Below, one piece after another: positions 16,625 to 61,858 of a stretch of DNA of 64,000 nucleotides; the first letter of the stretch is position 1, and every line of letters starts with the position of its first letter. The position numbers were made by a program, and so were the translations under genes. This DNA comes from Escherichia phage vB_EcoM_FT, in the sequence record MT682710.1; one strand, written 5' to 3'. Under the pieces are notes generated by a model. The model did no database searches. It saw nothing but the letters and a program-made list of their open reading frames with translations, and had not been told where the DNA came from.

Positions 16625-17227
16625 TTATAGATTAAATCCTTCAAAATCAAGAGTATAGATAGTGTATGTTGAATACTTTTTGTACTCATATCTATCTGCA
16701 ATTCTAAATACACTTCCAGCTGGTATCATTACTTCTTGTTCATCTGAAACTAATTCCATATTACGATAACGATGACTATCCGGAAACTTAAAGTTTGGAT
16801 TGTATTCTTTACAGCGTAGAGCTTTTATAGCATACTCCTGGAAATTGAATACCATAGGAGCTTTGAATTCAAAAATAACCTGTGTGTTATACTCTAAACC
16901 GGAAGCAAAATGTAGAGCTATATTTTTATCATATGAAGCTGATACTACTTTATCAAATGTAATAATATCAATTCCTTGATTTAACACTTGCTTAGTCTCG
17001 ACTGGAACACCTCTCCAAAGAGGTTTATCGTTTGGAACCAAACGAGATTTGATTATTTCATTTAACCAAGTATGGTCATCTGGCTTATTGGTAATACAAT
17101 GAATTAAAAGTTCAATTTCAGATAAATTAAACCCTTCAGAAAGCAATTCTTCACGAATAGAAGCACGCACCGATGCATCCATTGATTTTATTTTAAAATC
17201 TTTTAGTTGCATTACTGAGTATTTCAT
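16625..17227 (-). CDS. modA: ADP-ribosyltransferase ModA
   Basis: 200-aa ORF; R72 (LWRG), SAS, EQEVMIP motif; T4 ModA length. Confidence 0.85.
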   Translation of the reverse strand: MKYSVMQLKDFKIKSMDASVRASIREELLSEGFNLSEIELLIHCITNKPDDHTWLNEIIKSRLVPNDKPLWRGVPVETKQVLNQGIDIITFDKVVSASYDKNIALHFASGLEYNTQVIFEFKAPMVFNFQEYAIKALRCKEYNPNFKFPDSHRYRNMELVSDEQEVMIPAGSVFRIADRYEYKKYSTYTIYTLDFEGFNL

Positions 17228-17847
17228 TCAACTACCTCAATATCATAAACTTTAAATGTTCCAAATGAATCGTGTAATTTTTCTTTTGAAATAGAAGTTA
17301 TTCTATACTTTCCAATTGGAATCATCCATTCTTGTTCACGCACAATCATCATTAAGTTATCAGTACGCTCTGAATCTAATCCATCAGTATCTTCATACGT
17401 GTACTTAAACTCAGTATTAGGAGAAGAAAGTATAATATCGCTGATATGGTCAGAATAATTAAAAGCTTTATTAGTTTTTAAGCGAAGTATTATTTTAGTA
17501 AAATATTCAGCGTAAGAAAAAGAACATGCTGTGAGCAAACTAGTAGTAAATGAATCTACCCTGTTCGTTGAAAACACTTCTCCAACTTGTAAATCTTTAA
17601 TAAGTTCTTCTGTTGATTTTGATATACCACGATATAACTGATAAGGTGATTTAGTTAAATGCTTTTTAATGATTTTATTCAATTGCCGATGAAGAGCTTC
17701 ATTCTTTTTAGCTTCCATACATTGCCAAAGAACAGACTGCTCAAAGTCAGTAAATTTTTCACAGACCTTTTTATACATATCATATTGAAAATCAACGCTT
17801 TCAGCTTTTATAGATAACTGTTCAACATCTGCAAGATTAATAATCAT
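17224..17847 (-). CDS. modB: ADP-ribosyltransferase ModB
   Basis: 207-aa ORF; LYRG, FSTN, REQEWMIP motif; T4 ModB length. Confidence 0.85.
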   Translation of the reverse strand: MIINLADVEQLSIKAESVDFQYDMYKKVCEKFTDFEQSVLWQCMEAKKNEALHRQLNKIIKKHLTKSPYQLYRGISKSTEELIKDLQVGEVFSTNRVDSFTTSLLTACSFSYAEYFTKIILRLKTNKAFNYSDHISDIILSSPNTEFKYTYEDTDGLDSERTDNLMMIVREQEWMIPIGKYRITSISKEKLHDSFGTFKVYDIEVVE

Positions 17848-17873
17848 GATAGCCTCCGTATACTTCAGAAGCT

Positions 17874-56424: not shown

Positions 56425-57393
56425 TTATTTCAGAAGAGTAACCTCAGCGATTTCTTGCCAACCATTTTTGTCGGTCATAATAAAGTCAGCAAGATAAAGT
56501 GCAGTACGCAGTGAAACATTGCGTAAACGGTTAACATTGACTTTCATCCATGATAATGCTTTATAAGTTTCTTCATCAGAAAGACCGCGCTTTTGCATCA
56601 TGTCGGTTGAAAGAATAACATCTTCAACCCTGACCATAATTTCTTCATTAGTGTGAACACCCAAATCTAAATAAACTGAGCGGGACACTAATGCTTGTAA
56701 ATGTGGAGCAAGTTTAGTACCACGGTCTAATTCGCGGTCAATGTCAACGTTTGTGATAAAAACAATCGTTCCTTTAAATTCAAACTCACGCTCAATGCCT
56801 TTTTCTTCTAAGTAAGAAGATGCAGTGCTCCAGCAGACTTTACGGGTCTCTCCGGTGTCCAGAGCGGCTTTTAGAAGATTAAGAATGTCCATATCAGAGA
56901 AAACATCCACATCATCAATCAAAAGGACAGAATTCTCTTCACGATTATTCCAGAGCTGTTCATAAAGACCAATACCAGAGATTTTACCGTTAATGCTTTT
57001 ATATTCAATGTATCCATTATCATTTGCTTTATTCAAAGCTTTATCTAAAGAATACGTTTTACCAATACCCGCCGCACCAGAGATAATTAATGAACGAATG
57101 TTTCCGTTAATAATACCATTCGTCATCATTCCCATAACATTAAATCTTTTATTAATGCGGGTTTTCATATCTTCATATGATTCTTTAACTTCTTCAACTT
57201 TTACACCATCATATGAAATGTCTGATTTGTAAACCCAAACACCGCGACGTTTACCGTCAATTTCAACAAAAACTTTACCATCTCCTTGTGCATCTACCGG
57301 AGCATTATCTGGGAACCATTCACCTAAGAGCTCAAAAGTTCCAGAGATTTCTTTACCGAAGTAGATACCCTTATTGATAGTTACAGTTTTCAT
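56425..57393 (-). CDS. AAA+/P-loop ATPase
   Basis: 322-aa ORF; Walker A GAAGIGKT, Walker B LLIDDVD; about 100-aa N-terminal extra domain. Confidence 0.7.
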   Translation of the reverse strand: MKTVTINKGIYFGKEISGTFELLGEWFPDNAPVDAQGDGKVFVEIDGKRRGVWVYKSDISYDGVKVEEVKESYEDMKTRINKRFNVMGMMTNGIINGNIRSLIISGAAGIGKTYSLDKALNKANDNGYIEYKSINGKISGIGLYEQLWNNREENSVLLIDDVDVFSDMDILNLLKAALDTGETRKVCWSTASSYLEEKGIEREFEFKGTIVFITNVDIDRELDRGTKLAPHLQALVSRSVYLDLGVHTNEEIMVRVEDVILSTDMMQKRGLSDEETYKALSWMKVNVNRLRNVSLRTALYLADFIMTDKNGWQEIAEVTLLK

Positions 57394-57450
57394 TTTATTC
57401 TCCTTTGATTTGATAGGACTACTATAACATAATCCTATCAGTTTGTATAC

Positions 57451-57651
57451 TTATTTTGACATTTCTTCGATGTCACGACGATACCCGTCACGAACTTCAC
57501 GAAGAGCTTCAAGGCCACACATAGGCTCGATACCAGTAATGTGAACTTGATTAATCTGATACTCTACATCTTCTAACTGAGCGAAAACATAACGACGTTC
57601 AGCTGCACAACCAGATTTAGCTTTACCGAAACGTTTATTCAAAGTAGTCAT
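57451..57651 (-). CDS. hypothetical protein
   Basis: 66-aa ORF behind promoter 57690..57719. Confidence 0.45.
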   Translation of the reverse strand: MTTLNKRFGKAKSGCAAERRYVFAQLEDVEYQINQVHITGIEPMCGLEALREVRDGYRRDIEEMSK

Positions 57652-57689
57652 TTTGTATCTCCAATTTACTCATTTGTTTTGATAGGTCT

Positions 57690-57719
57690 ATAGTATCAAC
57701 AACTACAGACCATGTAAAC
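57690..57719 (-). promoter_or_regulatory. early promoter (GTTTAC-N18-TACTAT)
   Basis: upstream of 57451..57651. Confidence 0.5.
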
Positions 57720-57722
57720 AAT

Positions 57723-57986
57723 TTATTTTAATTTTCGCCAAATTTTTACTGCTTCTCGCCTCGATACTTCTACGGCGCCAAGTTCTATAGCTTTTTGACG
57801 ACGACTTGCACGTAAGTCATAATGTTTAATGCGTTTATCTTGAAACCAAGAACGTTTCATTCCTATTGCTTCTGCCATTTCGTGAAGCTCTTCAATATCT
57901 CCATCAGTGAACATATGACAATTTTTAGTTGGATGACCGCGAAGTTTCCATCCATGATTCATTAAAACATCTACGTAAACTGTCAT
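57723..57986 (-). CDS. hypothetical protein
   Basis: 87-aa ORF; preceded by an untracked 49-aa ORF (about 57983..58132) with overlapping stop/start. Confidence 0.5.
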   Translation of the reverse strand: MTVYVDVLMNHGWKLRGHPTKNCHMFTDGDIEELHEMAEAIGMKRSWFQDKRIKHYDLRASRRQKAIELGAVEVSRREAVKIWRKLK

Positions 57987-58168
57987 TGATTCTTCTCCAA
58001 ATAAGTTTCGATAATTTTCTGGGCGAGATAAACCGCGTTATCTTCAGTTGCGTCTTCTAAGAAACTTTCAAAACACTCTGAAATTTCTTCTGTATCAATC
58101 AACTTTTTTACTTCAATTGGTGTAATTTTCATTTTGTTTTCCGTTTAAGTGTTTGTTTTGATAGTTGT

Positions 58169-58198
58169 ATAGTACCATAAAGCTTTATGCTTGTAAAC
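58169..58198 (-). promoter_or_regulatory. early promoter, downstream copy of the direct repeat flanking the ART-like ORF
   Basis: GTTTAC-N18-TACTAT; preceded by hairpin and repeat gtaaacaactttgtgaaaaatttttgaaataaaaa. Confidence 0.55.
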
Positions 58199-58254
58199 AA
58201 CTTTGTGAAAAATTTTTGAAATAAAAAGGGGACCTCTAGGGCCCCTTTATGCTT

Positions 58255-58755
58255 TTATTCCATTTCTATTATATGCATGCTCTTTTTGCTATCAAAATAT
58301 ATGTTTTTAACTGTTAACTCCGAATTAATTGGCAATAAAAACTCTCTTTCATAATCCACCATAGAAAGATTATCATAAAGCTTATTAAGCTTATCATCAT
58401 CAATCTGGCCAGATTCTTCAATTGCGATTAAATTTTCTAAAATTTCAATCATAGCAGTTGAATAGTCAAAAACGTTTGCATTTTTTAACACTATTAAAAC
58501 ATTAGTCATATAGCGTTCTGCTGCAAATGTTTCAGCTATATGGGATTCACTACTAAAGGAAGTTATTCTTTTAAATTTGATTCTCCTATTAACTTCAAAC
58601 TTATGAGATAGTACTTCCTCTATTGTAAGTCCTCTAAAAAGTACGTCTTTAATCTCAAGTTTGTCTTTAATGTAATCATTAACACGCTTATGATTAAAAT
58701 CATTAATTTTGTTGCCAAGGCATTTCATTAAAATATGCATTGTGTTTCTCTTCAA
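58255..58755 (-). CDS. putative mono-ADP-ribosyltransferase (ModA/ModB-like R-S-ExE signature)
   Basis: 166-aa ORF; LFRG (R41), SFS (66-68), EREFLLP (136-142), spacing nearly identical to ModA in this window; flanked by promoter-hairpin direct repeats. Confidence 0.5.
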   Translation of the reverse strand: MKRNTMHILMKCLGNKINDFNHKRVNDYIKDKLEIKDVLFRGLTIEEVLSHKFEVNRRIKFKRITSFSSESHIAETFAAERYMTNVLIVLKNANVFDYSTAMIEILENLIAIEESGQIDDDKLNKLYDNLSMVDYEREFLLPINSELTVKNIYFDSKKSMHIIEME

Positions 58756-58789
58756 TTTTTAAAGAACGATTAATTAACTACAAATATAT

Positions 58790-58818
58790 TATAATATGCT
58801 TTATGATAGAAGTAAACA
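58790..58818 (-). promoter_or_regulatory. early promoter, upstream copy of the direct repeat flanking the ART-like ORF
   Basis: GTTTAC present, -10 less clear; same about 35-bp repeat as at 58191..58225. Confidence 0.45.
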
Positions 58819-58848
58819 ACTTTGTGAAAAATTTTTGAAATAAAAAAA

Positions 58849-58864
58849 GGAGCCCGAAGGCTCC
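58849..58864 (-). terminator. GC stem-loop with UUCG-type tetraloop downstream of NTase gene
   Basis: ggagcccgaaggctcc then T-run on minus strand. Confidence 0.55.
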
Positions 58865-58867
58865 CTA

Positions 58868-59881
58868 TCATTTATAATAACTTCGGTGGTTTTCAAGATA
58901 GACCTTCTCAAGGAAGTCATCCCAGAAACTCATGTCTACTTTTTGTTGCATACCGTTCTTAGAAGCTTCAGTAGATGCTGCTTCTACTTGATCGACCACA
59001 TCTTCCAAAAACTCTTGAACTGTTTTAAATGGATGTTTACCCAACTTCACGTCGAGAATAAATGGAGCATCTTGAAGTGGATAAACCAAGTCACCAGTTT
59101 TGTAAATTTCCAATAGTTGGAGTCCACCACGGCAAGCATGACTCAAAGCTTTCCAGTCAATACCTTCATTGGCTTCGGCCTTACGAGCACGTTCACCATA
59201 TTCAGCATCTAATTTGTTCAGTGACTGCTTAAGCTCAATAAGAGAAAGCGTTGTCTGATATTTACGACCCAACACAGTGTAGAACGTTTGTGGGCCTGTT
59301 TTCTCATGATTATGGAACACCCATTCACAGAATTCGTTTTCTGGAAGACGATGCTTAATATCTTCAACTTTAGTACGACGCTGCTTAATAGAACCATCTT
59401 CTTGGTAATCAACCCATTGCTCAGGGATTTGATTAACTACTTTCAATACATCGCGTAATGCAGCCAAACGAGAACCCTTGACACCGTATTTAGAAGCTTG
59501 CTTGCGGACATATCCTAAATATGATTTCATGTTAGTCGTATAAAAACGAGAACGGTTGTCTTGAATAAACTTCCACACATCAGGCAAATCTGATTTAACC
59601 ACTAGTTCAGGTGGAGTGTGAAGCATATCCAATGCTACAGTTTCACCATCTGCTGCTAATTTAAAGAAATATTTAAGACTGTATAGTTCATGGTCAATAT
59701 CATCTTTAGTGTTTTTAGATGATGTGTTGTTAGTGTTTTTACTCATATGCTCTTTAACATTTCCAATAAGAATATCGCGAGCAGGAGGAACAAAGATTTC
59801 TTTAAAATCTACATCAGATTCTGGAGTAGAAGTTCCATAAAGATGACTACCAAAATAGCTTTTCATTACTGTTTTCATCAT
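58868..59881 (-). CDS. predicted nucleotidyltransferase (Pol-beta-like NTase fold)
   Basis: 337-aa ORF; N-terminal FGSHLYGTSTPESDVDF fits hG[GS]x9-13Dh[DE]h; start overlaps stop of upstream membrane ORF. Confidence 0.55.
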   Translation of the reverse strand: MMKTVMKSYFGSHLYGTSTPESDVDFKEIFVPPARDILIGNVKEHMSKNTNNTSSKNTKDDIDHELYSLKYFFKLAADGETVALDMLHTPPELVVKSDLPDVWKFIQDNRSRFYTTNMKSYLGYVRKQASKYGVKGSRLAALRDVLKVVNQIPEQWVDYQEDGSIKQRRTKVEDIKHRLPENEFCEWVFHNHEKTGPQTFYTVLGRKYQTTLSLIELKQSLNKLDAEYGERARKAEANEGIDWKALSHACRGGLQLLEIYKTGDLVYPLQDAPFILDVKLGKHPFKTVQEFLEDVVDQVEAASTEASKNGMQQKVDMSFWDDFLEKVYLENHRSYYK

Positions 59882-60339
59882 TCAGCCTTATATTCAATAA
59901 CTGGACATACTTTAGCTTTACGAGCTTTTAAAAATTCGACGATAATCGATTTCTTGGGTTGAATAGGAGGTAAACCTTTATACGCCCTATCAATATTTTC
60001 TGCGTGTAAAGCATAATCCTTTTTCCATTTATAATCTTTATATTTTTCACGCAAATGTGCAGGAATAACAAATGAACCAATAATAAGTAAAACAACCAAA
60101 AGCGCAAGTATAAATGCTGATGGAATAAGAGTCCATAAACTACCAAAAATAAGCCATTTCTGTATGATTTCTGCACAGATGATAGTTAGACCTACGAGTA
60201 TAGTACATCCGAAAAAAGAAACGAAAAATGTAGGAATGGCAATAGACCAAAAATATGCGCATAGTGTCTTAGGTCGTTTCCATTCATCATTAAACATTTT
60301 GAATAATTTATAGTGCCAAGAGTTTTCATTAATAATCAT
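59878..60339 (-). CDS. membrane protein (2-3 TM helices) coupled to the nucleotidyltransferase gene
   Basis: 153-aa hydrophobic ORF; 4-nt overlap with downstream NTase ORF. Confidence 0.55.
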   Translation of the reverse strand: MIINENSWHYKLFKMFNDEWKRPKTLCAYFWSIAIPTFFVSFFGCTILVGLTIICAEIIQKWLIFGSLWTLIPSAFILALLVVLLIIGSFVIPAHLREKYKDYKWKKDYALHAENIDRAYKGLPPIQPKKSIIVEFLKARKAKVCPVIEYKAE

Positions 60340-60341
60340 AA

Positions 60342-60863
60342 TTATCCTTTCATTGAAGGCGTAACAGTTGTTAAATACTTAATCATAGCTTCAGCTTCTG
60401 ATTTTGATAATGAAATTTCTCCATTGTTTTGACGAATAGAAATAAAATCCGGATGACGGTCACCACCAGCTTTTAAAACACACATATAAGTATCAGTTTC
60501 ATCTTCAATATTTGAAATGATTGAAGCAGTTCCACACGAATGTGGTTTTTGATAAATCAATACAGCTTTTCTTCCACCATTTGACTGTTCATAAACTTTT
60601 AATACATCAAACAAATCACTTCTTTTATCAATAGCTAAGATGTTGTTTTCATCTTCAATGTTAAATCCTTCGGATACTTCATAAAGTGTCACCCATAAAT
60701 CACCTATATCGATAGTAGCATTTTCCTTTCCATGACTTTCAAGAGCATGACAAATTTTCTTGATTTCGTCATAACTCATTTTAATAATATCATCTCCTTG
60801 AATAAGGAAGATGTCATTTTTAAATTCAACACGAATTAAACCACTTCCACTTGAAATAAACAT
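60342..60863 (-). CDS. hypothetical protein, tandem paralog 1
   Basis: 173-aa ORF; C-terminus ISLSKSEAEAMIKYLTTVTPSM parallels the next ORF. Confidence 0.55.
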   Translation of the reverse strand: MFISSGSGLIRVEFKNDIFLIQGDDIIKMSYDEIKKICHALESHGKENATIDIGDLWVTLYEVSEGFNIEDENNILAIDKRSDLFDVLKVYEQSNGGRKAVLIYQKPHSCGTASIISNIEDETDTYMCVLKAGGDRHPDFISIRQNNGEISLSKSEAEAMIKYLTTVTPSMKG

Positions 60864-60869
60864 ATTTCC

Positions 60870-61424
60870 TCACTTTGAAATCATAGTTGGAATGACAGAA
60901 TCAAGATAAGTCTTTAGCGCAATAGCTTCGTCTTTGGTAAATGTGACAATATGTGATCGAAAATCGTCAATTTGGCGAATAGTTAAGACATCTCCCTCTT
61001 CATAACATTTTGATACATTTAAAAGAGTTTCATCATTCTGATTGCAAGCGCTAGTAATAATAGCATTGCAATTTTTGAGCCATTTTAAACTATGTTTTCT
61101 TTCATTAGAATAATAAAAATATTTAATCTTAGCTATAAAACTATCCCAATGGATAACTGATAAACACATTGACTCACTTTGAATATTAAATCCTGGGCAT
61201 GAAGAATAAAAATGAATTTTGTGCTCATCATTGATGCTTACTATTTTATCAGTATAAGGATATTCAATTTGGGTTAAATGAATAATTTCACTAGGTGTAA
61301 AATATAGCATATCGTCTTCTTGCGTCAAACGATACATATTATTTACTTTTTCTATAGCCAATTCACCAAAAAGTGGACTAACTTCTAATACTAATCGTTT
61401 CATATTAATCCTTTTTATTGGCAC
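60870..61424 (-). CDS. hypothetical protein, tandem paralog 2
   Basis: 184-aa ORF; C-terminus VTFTKDEAIALKTYLDSVIPTM. Confidence 0.55.
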   Translation of the reverse strand: MPIKRINMKRLVLEVSPLFGELAIEKVNNMYRLTQEDDMLYFTPSEIIHLTQIEYPYTDKIVSINDEHKIHFYSSCPGFNIQSESMCLSVIHWDSFIAKIKYFYYSNERKHSLKWLKNCNAIITSACNQNDETLLNVSKCYEEGDVLTIRQIDDFRSHIVTFTKDEAIALKTYLDSVIPTMISK

Positions 61425-61683
61425 GAATTTGTTCTAAAATTTTAGAATATTCCTTTGTATCAGATTTACGTACAATTGATACACTATAAGGCATACTATC
61501 GGTGTCTTTTATAAAGCGTTCCAAATGACACTCTAACAAAATTTCTGGATTATAAATCGTGTACATCAAATTACCTGTTGCTCCACGATATTGGCAGATT
61601 TCTACTGATTGAACACCATTCCATAATTTTGTTAAAACTAAATCACCTACTTCTAATTTAGGAAAGCCCATGTTATTCACCAA
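61405..61683 (-). CDS. hypothetical protein
   Basis: 92-aa ORF. Confidence 0.5.
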   Translation of the reverse strand: MVNNMGFPKLEVGDLVLTKLWNGVQSVEICQYRGATGNLMYTIYNPEILLECHLERFIKDTDSMPYSVSIVRKSDTKEYSKILEQIRANKKD

Positions 61684-61858
61684 TTAAAGTTTCAATATAA
61701 GAATCAAGATTTACTTTAGCTTCTTCCATAAGAGTTTTGTATTTAATCTTGTTAGCATGTCCGGAGAAAGCTGATTCATCAATAATTGTTGATGTATGAA
61801 CAGCTTTACTATACGTCTCAATTAATTCTCTTAATTTAAAAGCCTGCTCACTTGTCAT
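61673..61858 (-). CDS. hypothetical protein
   Basis: 61-aa ORF. Confidence 0.45.
   Translation of the reverse strand: MTSEQAFKLRELIETYSKAVHTSTIIDESAFSGHANKIKYKTLMEEAKVNLDSYIETLIGE

Follow-up and report, generated by a model that had tools for sequence, protein, structure and literature searches.

Escherichia phage vB_EcoM_FT (sequence record MT682710.1) carries, in the 64,000-nucleotide stretch of its genome that we analysed (hereafter the window), a block of four genes at positions 58868-61424 in which a predicted nucleotidyltransferase (NTase) is encoded next to a small membrane protein, and the locus raises the question of what this enzyme acts on and whether it works together with its neighbour. 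A preliminary description, made from the letters alone, had read the block as an accessory module in which the NTase is coupled to the membrane protein and preceded by two tandem paralogues, and had suggested counter-defence or host manipulation, possibly through signalling nucleotides. Our analysis confirmed what had been observed and bore out part of the interpretation. The NTase is almost certainly the NrdC.11 protein of phage T4, a long-form member of the RlaP family, and we think it on balance probable that NrdC.11 adds nucleotides to RNA 3' ends in the repair of tRNAs attacked by anticodon nucleases.

The genome is T4-like (Tequatrovirus), and the 6 kb around the block match Escherichia phage vB_EcoM_ACG-C40 at 97%, with 811 phage records matching overall. 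Every gene of the 58868-61424 stretch lies on the minus strand, and the four open reading frames (ORFs) have the extents first reported for them: 58868-59881 (337 residues, the NTase), 59878-60339 (153 residues, the membrane protein), 60342-60863 (173 residues) and 60870-61424 (184 residues).

Identity and family of the nucleotidyltransferase

The NTase encoded at 58868-59881 shares 331 of 336 residues (99% identity) with T4 NrdC.11 (NP_049709.1; UniProt P39242), the copy in phage RB27 is 100% identical, and the protein is present in 1517 phage records. It is equal in length to its T4 counterpart, occupies the corresponding place after the mobD.1 region, is followed by the same terminator region and has flanks that are collinear with those of T4, and from these alignments we regard its identity as nrdC.11 as practically certain. 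The two loci differ in the next gene upstream, which is mobD in T4 and here the gene of the 153-residue membrane protein, followed by that of a MobD.1 paralogue. A gene that is nrdC.11 itself, and so widely distributed, is not the accessory gene that it had been taken for. Neither the gene nor its annotation is new: the T4 RefSeq product name is already 'nucleotidyltransferase', nrdC.11 was assigned to the COG3541 nucleotidyltransferases in 2006 (PMC1524935), and membership of the RlaP family is likewise on record, T4 NrdC.11 belonging to cluster 5 of the RlaP network in a recent preprint (PMC12776372). Naming errors persist in the public records, where many NrdC.11 orthologues in GenBank are called 'thioredoxin' and one 'HNH homing endonuclease'.

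The RlaP family was reportedly named in a 2016 paper by Burroughs and Aravind. Its Pfam profile (RlaP/PF10127) matches the 337-residue ORF with an E-value of 1.8e-11 and 44.6 bits, against a gathering cut-off of 23, over profile positions 23-142 of 249, and phrog_388 ('nucleotidyltransferase') matches at 6e-137. In an exhaustive search the family comprised 3444 representative clusters (830 with E ≤1e-30), and the alignments ran from one end of the protein to the other; RlaP was matched by all 54 of 54 diverse homologues. The Pol-beta NTase motif noticed earlier, FGSHLYGTSTPESDVDF at residues 9-25 of the 337-residue ORF, holds up in this wider comparison, and so does the acidic triad: in a 54-sequence alignment (35-54% identity) the invariant positions are G11, S12, G16, S22, D23, D25, N57, D63, Y124, Y132, R231, K244, H248, R251 and P268. 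From the alignment and the structural model we predict G11, S12, D23, D25 and D63 to be catalytic, with D23/D25/D63 as the triad. The profile-profile comparison with canonical short RlaP by hhalign (93% probability, E 2.5e-7, N-terminal 120 columns only) aligns D63 to within about one column with the conserved third aspartate of that family, and in the AlphaFold2 (AF2) model D63 lies on the strand formed by residues 62-68. D85 was considered as the third catalytic residue and rejected, being placed in a helix by the model, whereas D63 is on the strand aligned to the RlaP aspartate.

The AF2 model of the NTase (predicted local distance difference test score, pLDDT, 94; predicted template modelling score, pTM, 0.81) begins with an alpha/beta NTase domain; a beta-rich insert follows at about residues 150-212, and residues 214-336 make up a helical C-terminal domain. 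Compared with the PDB by Foldseek, it gives weak NTase-fold matches only, with E-values above 4e-3; among solved structures it comes closest to NTases and to helical bundles of the HEPN/KNTase type, the best structural neighbour being HalB of the Hailong system. In the predicted architecture, an MNT/KNTase-type NTase is thus joined to a helical bundle that resembles HEPN/KNTase_C. Canonical RlaP is similar in its Pol-beta NTase domain with a GS / DxD / D centre and in the succession of an N-terminal NTase domain and a C-terminal helical domain, the last helix of which packs back on the NTase domain in the crystal structure of PfRlaP. In contrast to the canonical proteins of about 255-275 residues, NrdC.11 represents a long form of about 320-340 residues that contains the beta-rich insert. 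Sequence searches of the PDB with the NTase, the 54-sequence profile, a short-RlaP profile, the membrane protein, MobD.1 and a Mod-like protein encoded nearby returned nothing usable, and the PfRlaP structure was not among the matches; an NCBIfam scan gave sub-threshold matches only.

Homologues of NrdC.11 among RNA-repair genes

The gene neighbourhoods of NrdC.11-type homologues point in the direction of RNA. In a scan of one genome per bacterial or archaeal species we found 156 full-length relatives and kept 80 for neighbourhood counts, which are lower bounds, since detection relied on single-sequence searches and many loci are truncated. A canonical short RlaP gene lies near the homologue in at least 24 of the 80 loci, mostly immediately downstream, and RtcB, RtcA, Pnkp or Hen1 is encoded inside 5 kb in at least 17 of them. 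The order is Hen1-Pnkp-long NTase-short RlaP-Macro in an operon of an Asticcacaulis genome and RtcB-RtcA-long NTase-short RlaP-Hen1 in one of a Nitrosospira genome, both confirmed with Pfam; in such bacterial repair operons the long RlaP is encoded directly upstream of the short one (loci L126:1088-7277 and L103:2712-8161). A Pfam census of the genes flanking bacterial homologues is led by RNA-repair families. Outside the T4-like group, Rheinheimera phage Barba31A carries its homologue two genes downstream of a CCA-adding tRNA nucleotidyltransferase (L010:1750-4400). Because homologues sit in Hen1-Pnkp and RtcB-RtcA operons, the bacterial gene context favours a function of the long form in RNA repair. 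The tandem arrangement of long and canonical short RlaPs in bacterial Pnkp/Hen1 and RtcB/RtcA operons is possibly a useful by-product of this survey.

A probable role in the repair of trimmed tRNAs

The biochemistry of the family comes from a December 2025 preprint on two Pseudomonas RlaPs, PfRlaP and PaRlaP, which are encoded between rtcB and rtcA (PMC12776372). These two enzymes, to which the demonstration of nucleoside monophosphate (NMP) addition to RNA 3'-OH ends is confined, transfer 1-2 NMPs (or deoxy-NMPs, dNMPs) to such ends, with the 5' half of a cleaved-tRNA mimic as the preferred acceptor, and leave DNA unextended (PMC12776372). The authors of the preprint proposed that RlaP replaces, before ligation, nucleotides lost to 'smart' ribotoxins such as RloC (PMC12776372), and the same prediction had been made for RlaP in a comparative study of jumbo phages in 2021 (PMC7824862).

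If NrdC.11 functions in a similar way, its G-S / D-x-D / D centre would move one or a few NMPs from nucleoside triphosphates to the 3'-OH of damaged RNA, with 5' halves of tRNAs as the favoured acceptor. A host anticodon nuclease of the RloC type would cut a tRNA and then trim a nucleotide from it; after healing of the ends by the phage Pnkp, the missing nucleotide would be put back by NrdC.11 and the strand rejoined by a phage RNA ligase, the outcome being counter-defence through RNA repair. The earlier proposal of a counter-defence function would survive in this form, with anticodon nucleases as its target. That RNA is the substrate and that the enzyme cooperates with the Pnkp and Rnl enzymes of T4 is what we infer from the family and its context; the genes of the latter, pseT (Pnkp), rnlA (Rnl1) and rnlB (Rnl2), are located elsewhere in the T4 genome, which contains no short RlaP. 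If this proposal is correct, the repair set of T4-like phages would comprise not only Pnkp and Rnl1/Rnl2 but also an enzyme able to replace the nucleotides that 'smart' anticodon nucleases such as RloC take away, which would explain how a phage can mend tRNAs that have lost nucleotides in addition to being cut. The locus itself yields little that is new, and its worth lies in this testable hypothesis.

Several points weigh against a role in tRNA repair. The similarity of NrdC.11 to the characterised short RlaPs is limited to the N-terminal 120-130 residues or so, the C-terminal region of about 200 residues being specific to the long form, and T4 NrdC.11 is listed in the preprint as an 'RlaP of unknown function' (PMC12776372). 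The occurrence of long and short forms side by side in bacteria suggests that their activities differ, or that there is a division of labour between them. Neither an RNA ligase gene nor a Pnkp gene is present near nrdC.11 in the window, and the T4 genes from nrdC.11 through mobD.3 are dispensable for growth in the laboratory (PMC9825161).

Other substrates can be envisaged for an NTase of this fold. It is unlikely that the enzyme nucleotidylates a protein or a small molecule instead of RNA, in the manner of MNT antitoxins or of the KNTase, LinB and ANT enzymes: the NCBIfam equivalog for MntA-type (MNT) antitoxins scores 13.3 bits, well below its cut-off of 60, the bacterial homologues are grouped with RNA ligases and end-healing enzymes, and PfRlaP labelled only RNA among E. 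coli macromolecules, and not proteins or DNA (PMC12776372). Synthesis or extension of DNA by the long form, for example by template-independent synthesis of deoxyoligonucleotides as in HalB, seems to us improbable. It would fit with HalB being the best structural neighbour, with a C-terminal region specific to the long form and with the efficient use of dATP by PfRlaP, though only with RNA acceptors (PMC12776372). The short RlaPs did not extend DNA, however, the gene context is one of RNA repair, and the resemblance to HalB (PDB 9dbh, 9dbj) exists at the level of the fold only, with 15% sequence identity and no detection by sequence searches.

The adjacent membrane protein and its link to the NTase

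The 153-residue protein encoded at 59878-60339 on the minus strand belongs to phrog_944 ('membrane protein'), a phage-only family found in 854 phage records. Its hydropathy and the comparison of homologues indicate two long hydrophobic helices, and the AF2 model (pLDDT 89.5) forms a hairpin from helices at about residues 26-65 and 68-120, with short N- and C-terminal strands that pair with each other; the protein is thus predicted to be a two-helix hairpin of the inner membrane. The family is characterised by the motifs M.IN..SWH...LC.YFW at the N-terminus and [YF][LI]KA[RK]K.K.CP.[IL].[FY] at the C-terminus. Within these motifs, H9, C27 and C145 are invariant in the family alignments; as the model places the two terminal segments close to each other, these residues may contribute to a metal site or a disulfide. 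The protein has no Pfam family, no solved relative and, according to Foldseek, no PDB fold match better than E 3.5.

Where the membrane gene ends and the NTase gene begins, the stop/start junction reads GAATGATGAAA. The 4-nucleotide overlap noted between the two ORFs holds if the NTase starts at the first ATG. Because T4 has ATAATG at this site, we take the second ATG, at 59878, as the conserved start, which gives a protein of 336 residues and an overlap of 1 nucleotide with the stop codon of the membrane gene; the annotation of ACG-C40 agrees on both the second ATG and the 336 residues. Translational coupling of the two genes is possible.

The conservation of this arrangement is uneven. The membrane gene precedes the NTase gene and overlaps it in Mosigvirus and Dhakavirus, and the same order with one or two ORFs in between is found in Gelderlandvirus and in Klebsiella and Acinetobacter phages. 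In the Klebsiella (Tevenvirinae) and Acinetobacter (Twarogvirinae) phages the two genes are separated by an ORF of 73-83 residues, the products of which are homologous to each other (29% identity, E 1e-11; L005:3491-3712 and L008:2141-2392); this small ORF is absent from the present stretch of the window. Among 57 membrane-gene loci in IMG/VR, 29 are followed on the same strand by the NTase at a distance of 0-1.2 kb, and almost all of these lie on contigs of T4-like genome size; for the remaining 28, some of them from phages of about 93 kb, 230 kb and 355-378 kb, there is no NTase inside 6 kb. In Aeromonas phage AS-szw about 157 kb separate the two genes, in KVP40 the NTase gene is not directly preceded by the membrane gene, and in T2 the membrane copy is truncated or broken while the NTase is 99.4% identical. 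A profile search of the whole T4 genome found no true homologue of the membrane protein. T4 e.4, which scored E 6e-4, was rejected as a homologue: the similarity covers the hydrophobic region only, both terminal motifs are missing, and the match is lost with a 41-sequence profile.

The coupling postulated in the preliminary description is no more than an adjacency conserved in T4-like phages, and the NTase has no need of the membrane protein. In view of T4, T2, KVP40, AS-szw and the 28 viral loci just mentioned, the adjacency of the two genes is best explained as an inherited gene order and not as an obligate functional pair. This bears on two further interpretations. In the first, the long-form RlaP would be a distinct and not a redundant enzyme, which might restore a specific nucleotide or synthesise an oligonucleotide like HalB, and which the membrane protein might localise or regulate in those phages that have kept it, so that the pair would act as a membrane-linked counter-defence module that modifies nucleic acids; we see little probability in this. 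In the second, to which we attach even less, the two proteins would form a functional module resembling Hailong, which consists of the channel HalA and the NTase HalB: the product of the NTase would gate the membrane protein or be sensed by it, or the phage copy would mimic or counteract Hailong. The recurrent gene order, overlapping in Mosigvirus and Dhakavirus and interrupted in Gelderlandvirus and in the Klebsiella and Acinetobacter phages, and its presence in the 29 viral loci would be in keeping with such a module, but the linked cases all come from T4-like genomes, where the order is inherited, and the flanking genes of the bacterial homologues include no recurring membrane partner. The T4 NTase is 99% identical and yet has no membrane partner in its genome. 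HalA is moreover not among the fold matches of the membrane model, which resembles neither HalA nor any other solved fold, and PADLOC models gave zero matches among five proteins, matching neither the NTase nor the membrane protein.

Least of all do we expect the NTase to make or modify signalling nucleotides, whether as a CD-NTase- or OAS-like enzyme or as an anti-CBASS, anti-Pycsar or anti-Thoeris enzyme, because the Pol-beta fold, the intact catalytic centre and the location of the phage gene among many accessory genes, which could all be adduced in favour of such a function, are set against the lack of any match to CD-NTase/SMODS, OAS or cGAS in Pfam, of any such relative by fold and of any hit in PADLOC, and against a family and genomic context that indicate an RNA end as the acceptor.

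Replacement of the upstream cassette by mobD in T4

Synteny with T4 is collinear around the block, which confirms its placement in the region of mobD and the mobD.x genes, and blastn also bears out the suspicion of extra DNA, with three segments of the window lacking a T4 counterpart. The first, at 57404-58797 (1.39 kb), lies between nrdC.10 and nrdC.11, and the third, at 61402-61846 (445 nucleotides), between mobD.1 and mobD.2; neither has an equivalent in T4. The second, at 59883-60844 (962 nucleotides), contains the membrane gene and the MobD.1 paralogue, and its place is taken in T4 by 808 nucleotides that contain mobD, a free-standing HNH homing endonuclease gene. To judge from the same alignments, the NTase gene does not form part of the extra DNA. 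The genes beside it represent a common variant of this T4 region.

The limits of the 59883-60844 cassette were defined by blastn collinearity, junction alignments and the T4 annotation. It occupies exactly the slot of mobD, between nrdC.11 and mobD.1, which is the recorded mobD insertion site (PMC2988022), but the two cassettes share no sequence and mobD is absent from the window. Just upstream of mobD, T4 retains a remnant of the gene of the 173-residue paralogue, namely its ribosome-binding site and the six codons from the ATG onwards (MFISSG), and this remnant opens a 23-codon dead-end frame that ends at the start of mobD (L001:15209-15284; about 57208-57283 in the T4 record). Because T4 has kept these elements, we conclude from the sequence comparison that mobD evidently replaced the paralogue and membrane cassette in the T4 lineage. 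With its six-codon scar, this exchange illustrates cleanly how a homing endonuclease can take the place of other genes, and it is possibly a second useful by-product of the analysis.

MobD.1 and its paralogue

The tandem paralogy of the two upstream ORFs is real: their products are 26% identical (BLASTP E 4e-8), and both contain the two domains of the T4_y05I family ('y05I-like putative transcription factor') to which T4 MobD.1 belongs, T4_y05I_N at 6e-33 and T4_y05I_C at 2e-23 in the 173-residue protein (60342-60863) and at 1.1e-38 and 7.4e-21, respectively, in the 184-residue one. A search of the literature on 'y05I' and 'mobD.1' found nothing on function. The 184-residue frame, which reaches 61424, is a maximal ORF with a GTG start; the likely start of the gene is the ATG at 61403, preceded by an AAGGA ribosome-binding site, from which a protein of 177 residues would be made (60870-61403, minus strand), and 177 residues is also the length annotated in ACG-C40. 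With 86% identity to T4 MobD.1, this protein is its orthologue. The 173-residue protein is a divergent paralogue, only 25-26% identical to MobD.1 and absent from T4 except for the six-codon remnant. Because its 453 phage records are nearly all at least 90% identical, it is essentially confined to Tequatrovirus. RefSeq labels MobD.1 or MobD.4 'molybdopterin-guanine dinucleotide biosynthesis protein MobD', a confusion of gene names.

Transcription signals and neighbouring insertions

Expression signals were assessed at the level of sequence patterns. A strong terminator-like intrinsic hairpin (GGGAGCC-TTCG-GGCTCC followed by a T run; 58847-58866, minus strand) comes directly after the NTase stop codon, and the gene downstream of the NTase has a promoter-like site of its own at 58816-58788, so that the four genes appear to form a single leftward transcription unit ending with nrdC.11. 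The pattern scan located a second terminator-like hairpin at 62865-62848, and Rfam and tRNA scans over the entire window were empty.

The insertion at 57404-58797 contains a 66-residue ORF, a DUF4031 protein (57723-57986; Pfam E 7e-22), a 49-residue ORF and the gene of the Mod-like protein mentioned above; 120 nucleotides of it (58126-58245) repeat the T4 intergenic sequence between nrdC.10 and nrdC.11 with 82% identity. The Mod-like gene (58255-58740, minus strand) encodes a third Mod-like ADP-ribosyltransferase, of 161 residues, or 166 if counted from an upstream TTG, the regular modA and modB being also present in the window at 16628-17871. T4 ModB (E 1.8e-12) and ModA (E 2e-7) are relatives of its product, in which the R / S-x-S / E-x-E motif residues are intact, with about 37 N-terminal residues missing. 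The gene has its own promoter-like site and terminator-like hairpin, the T4 genome is empty at this locus, and the gene is called 'ModB' in the RefSeq record of ACG-C40. Two products are encoded in the insertion at 61402-61846: a protein with a 'Phage_tudor' domain (61405-61683; Pfam E 2.7e-40) and, from a 61-residue ORF, one that is labelled 'helicase loader' in RefSeq relatives.

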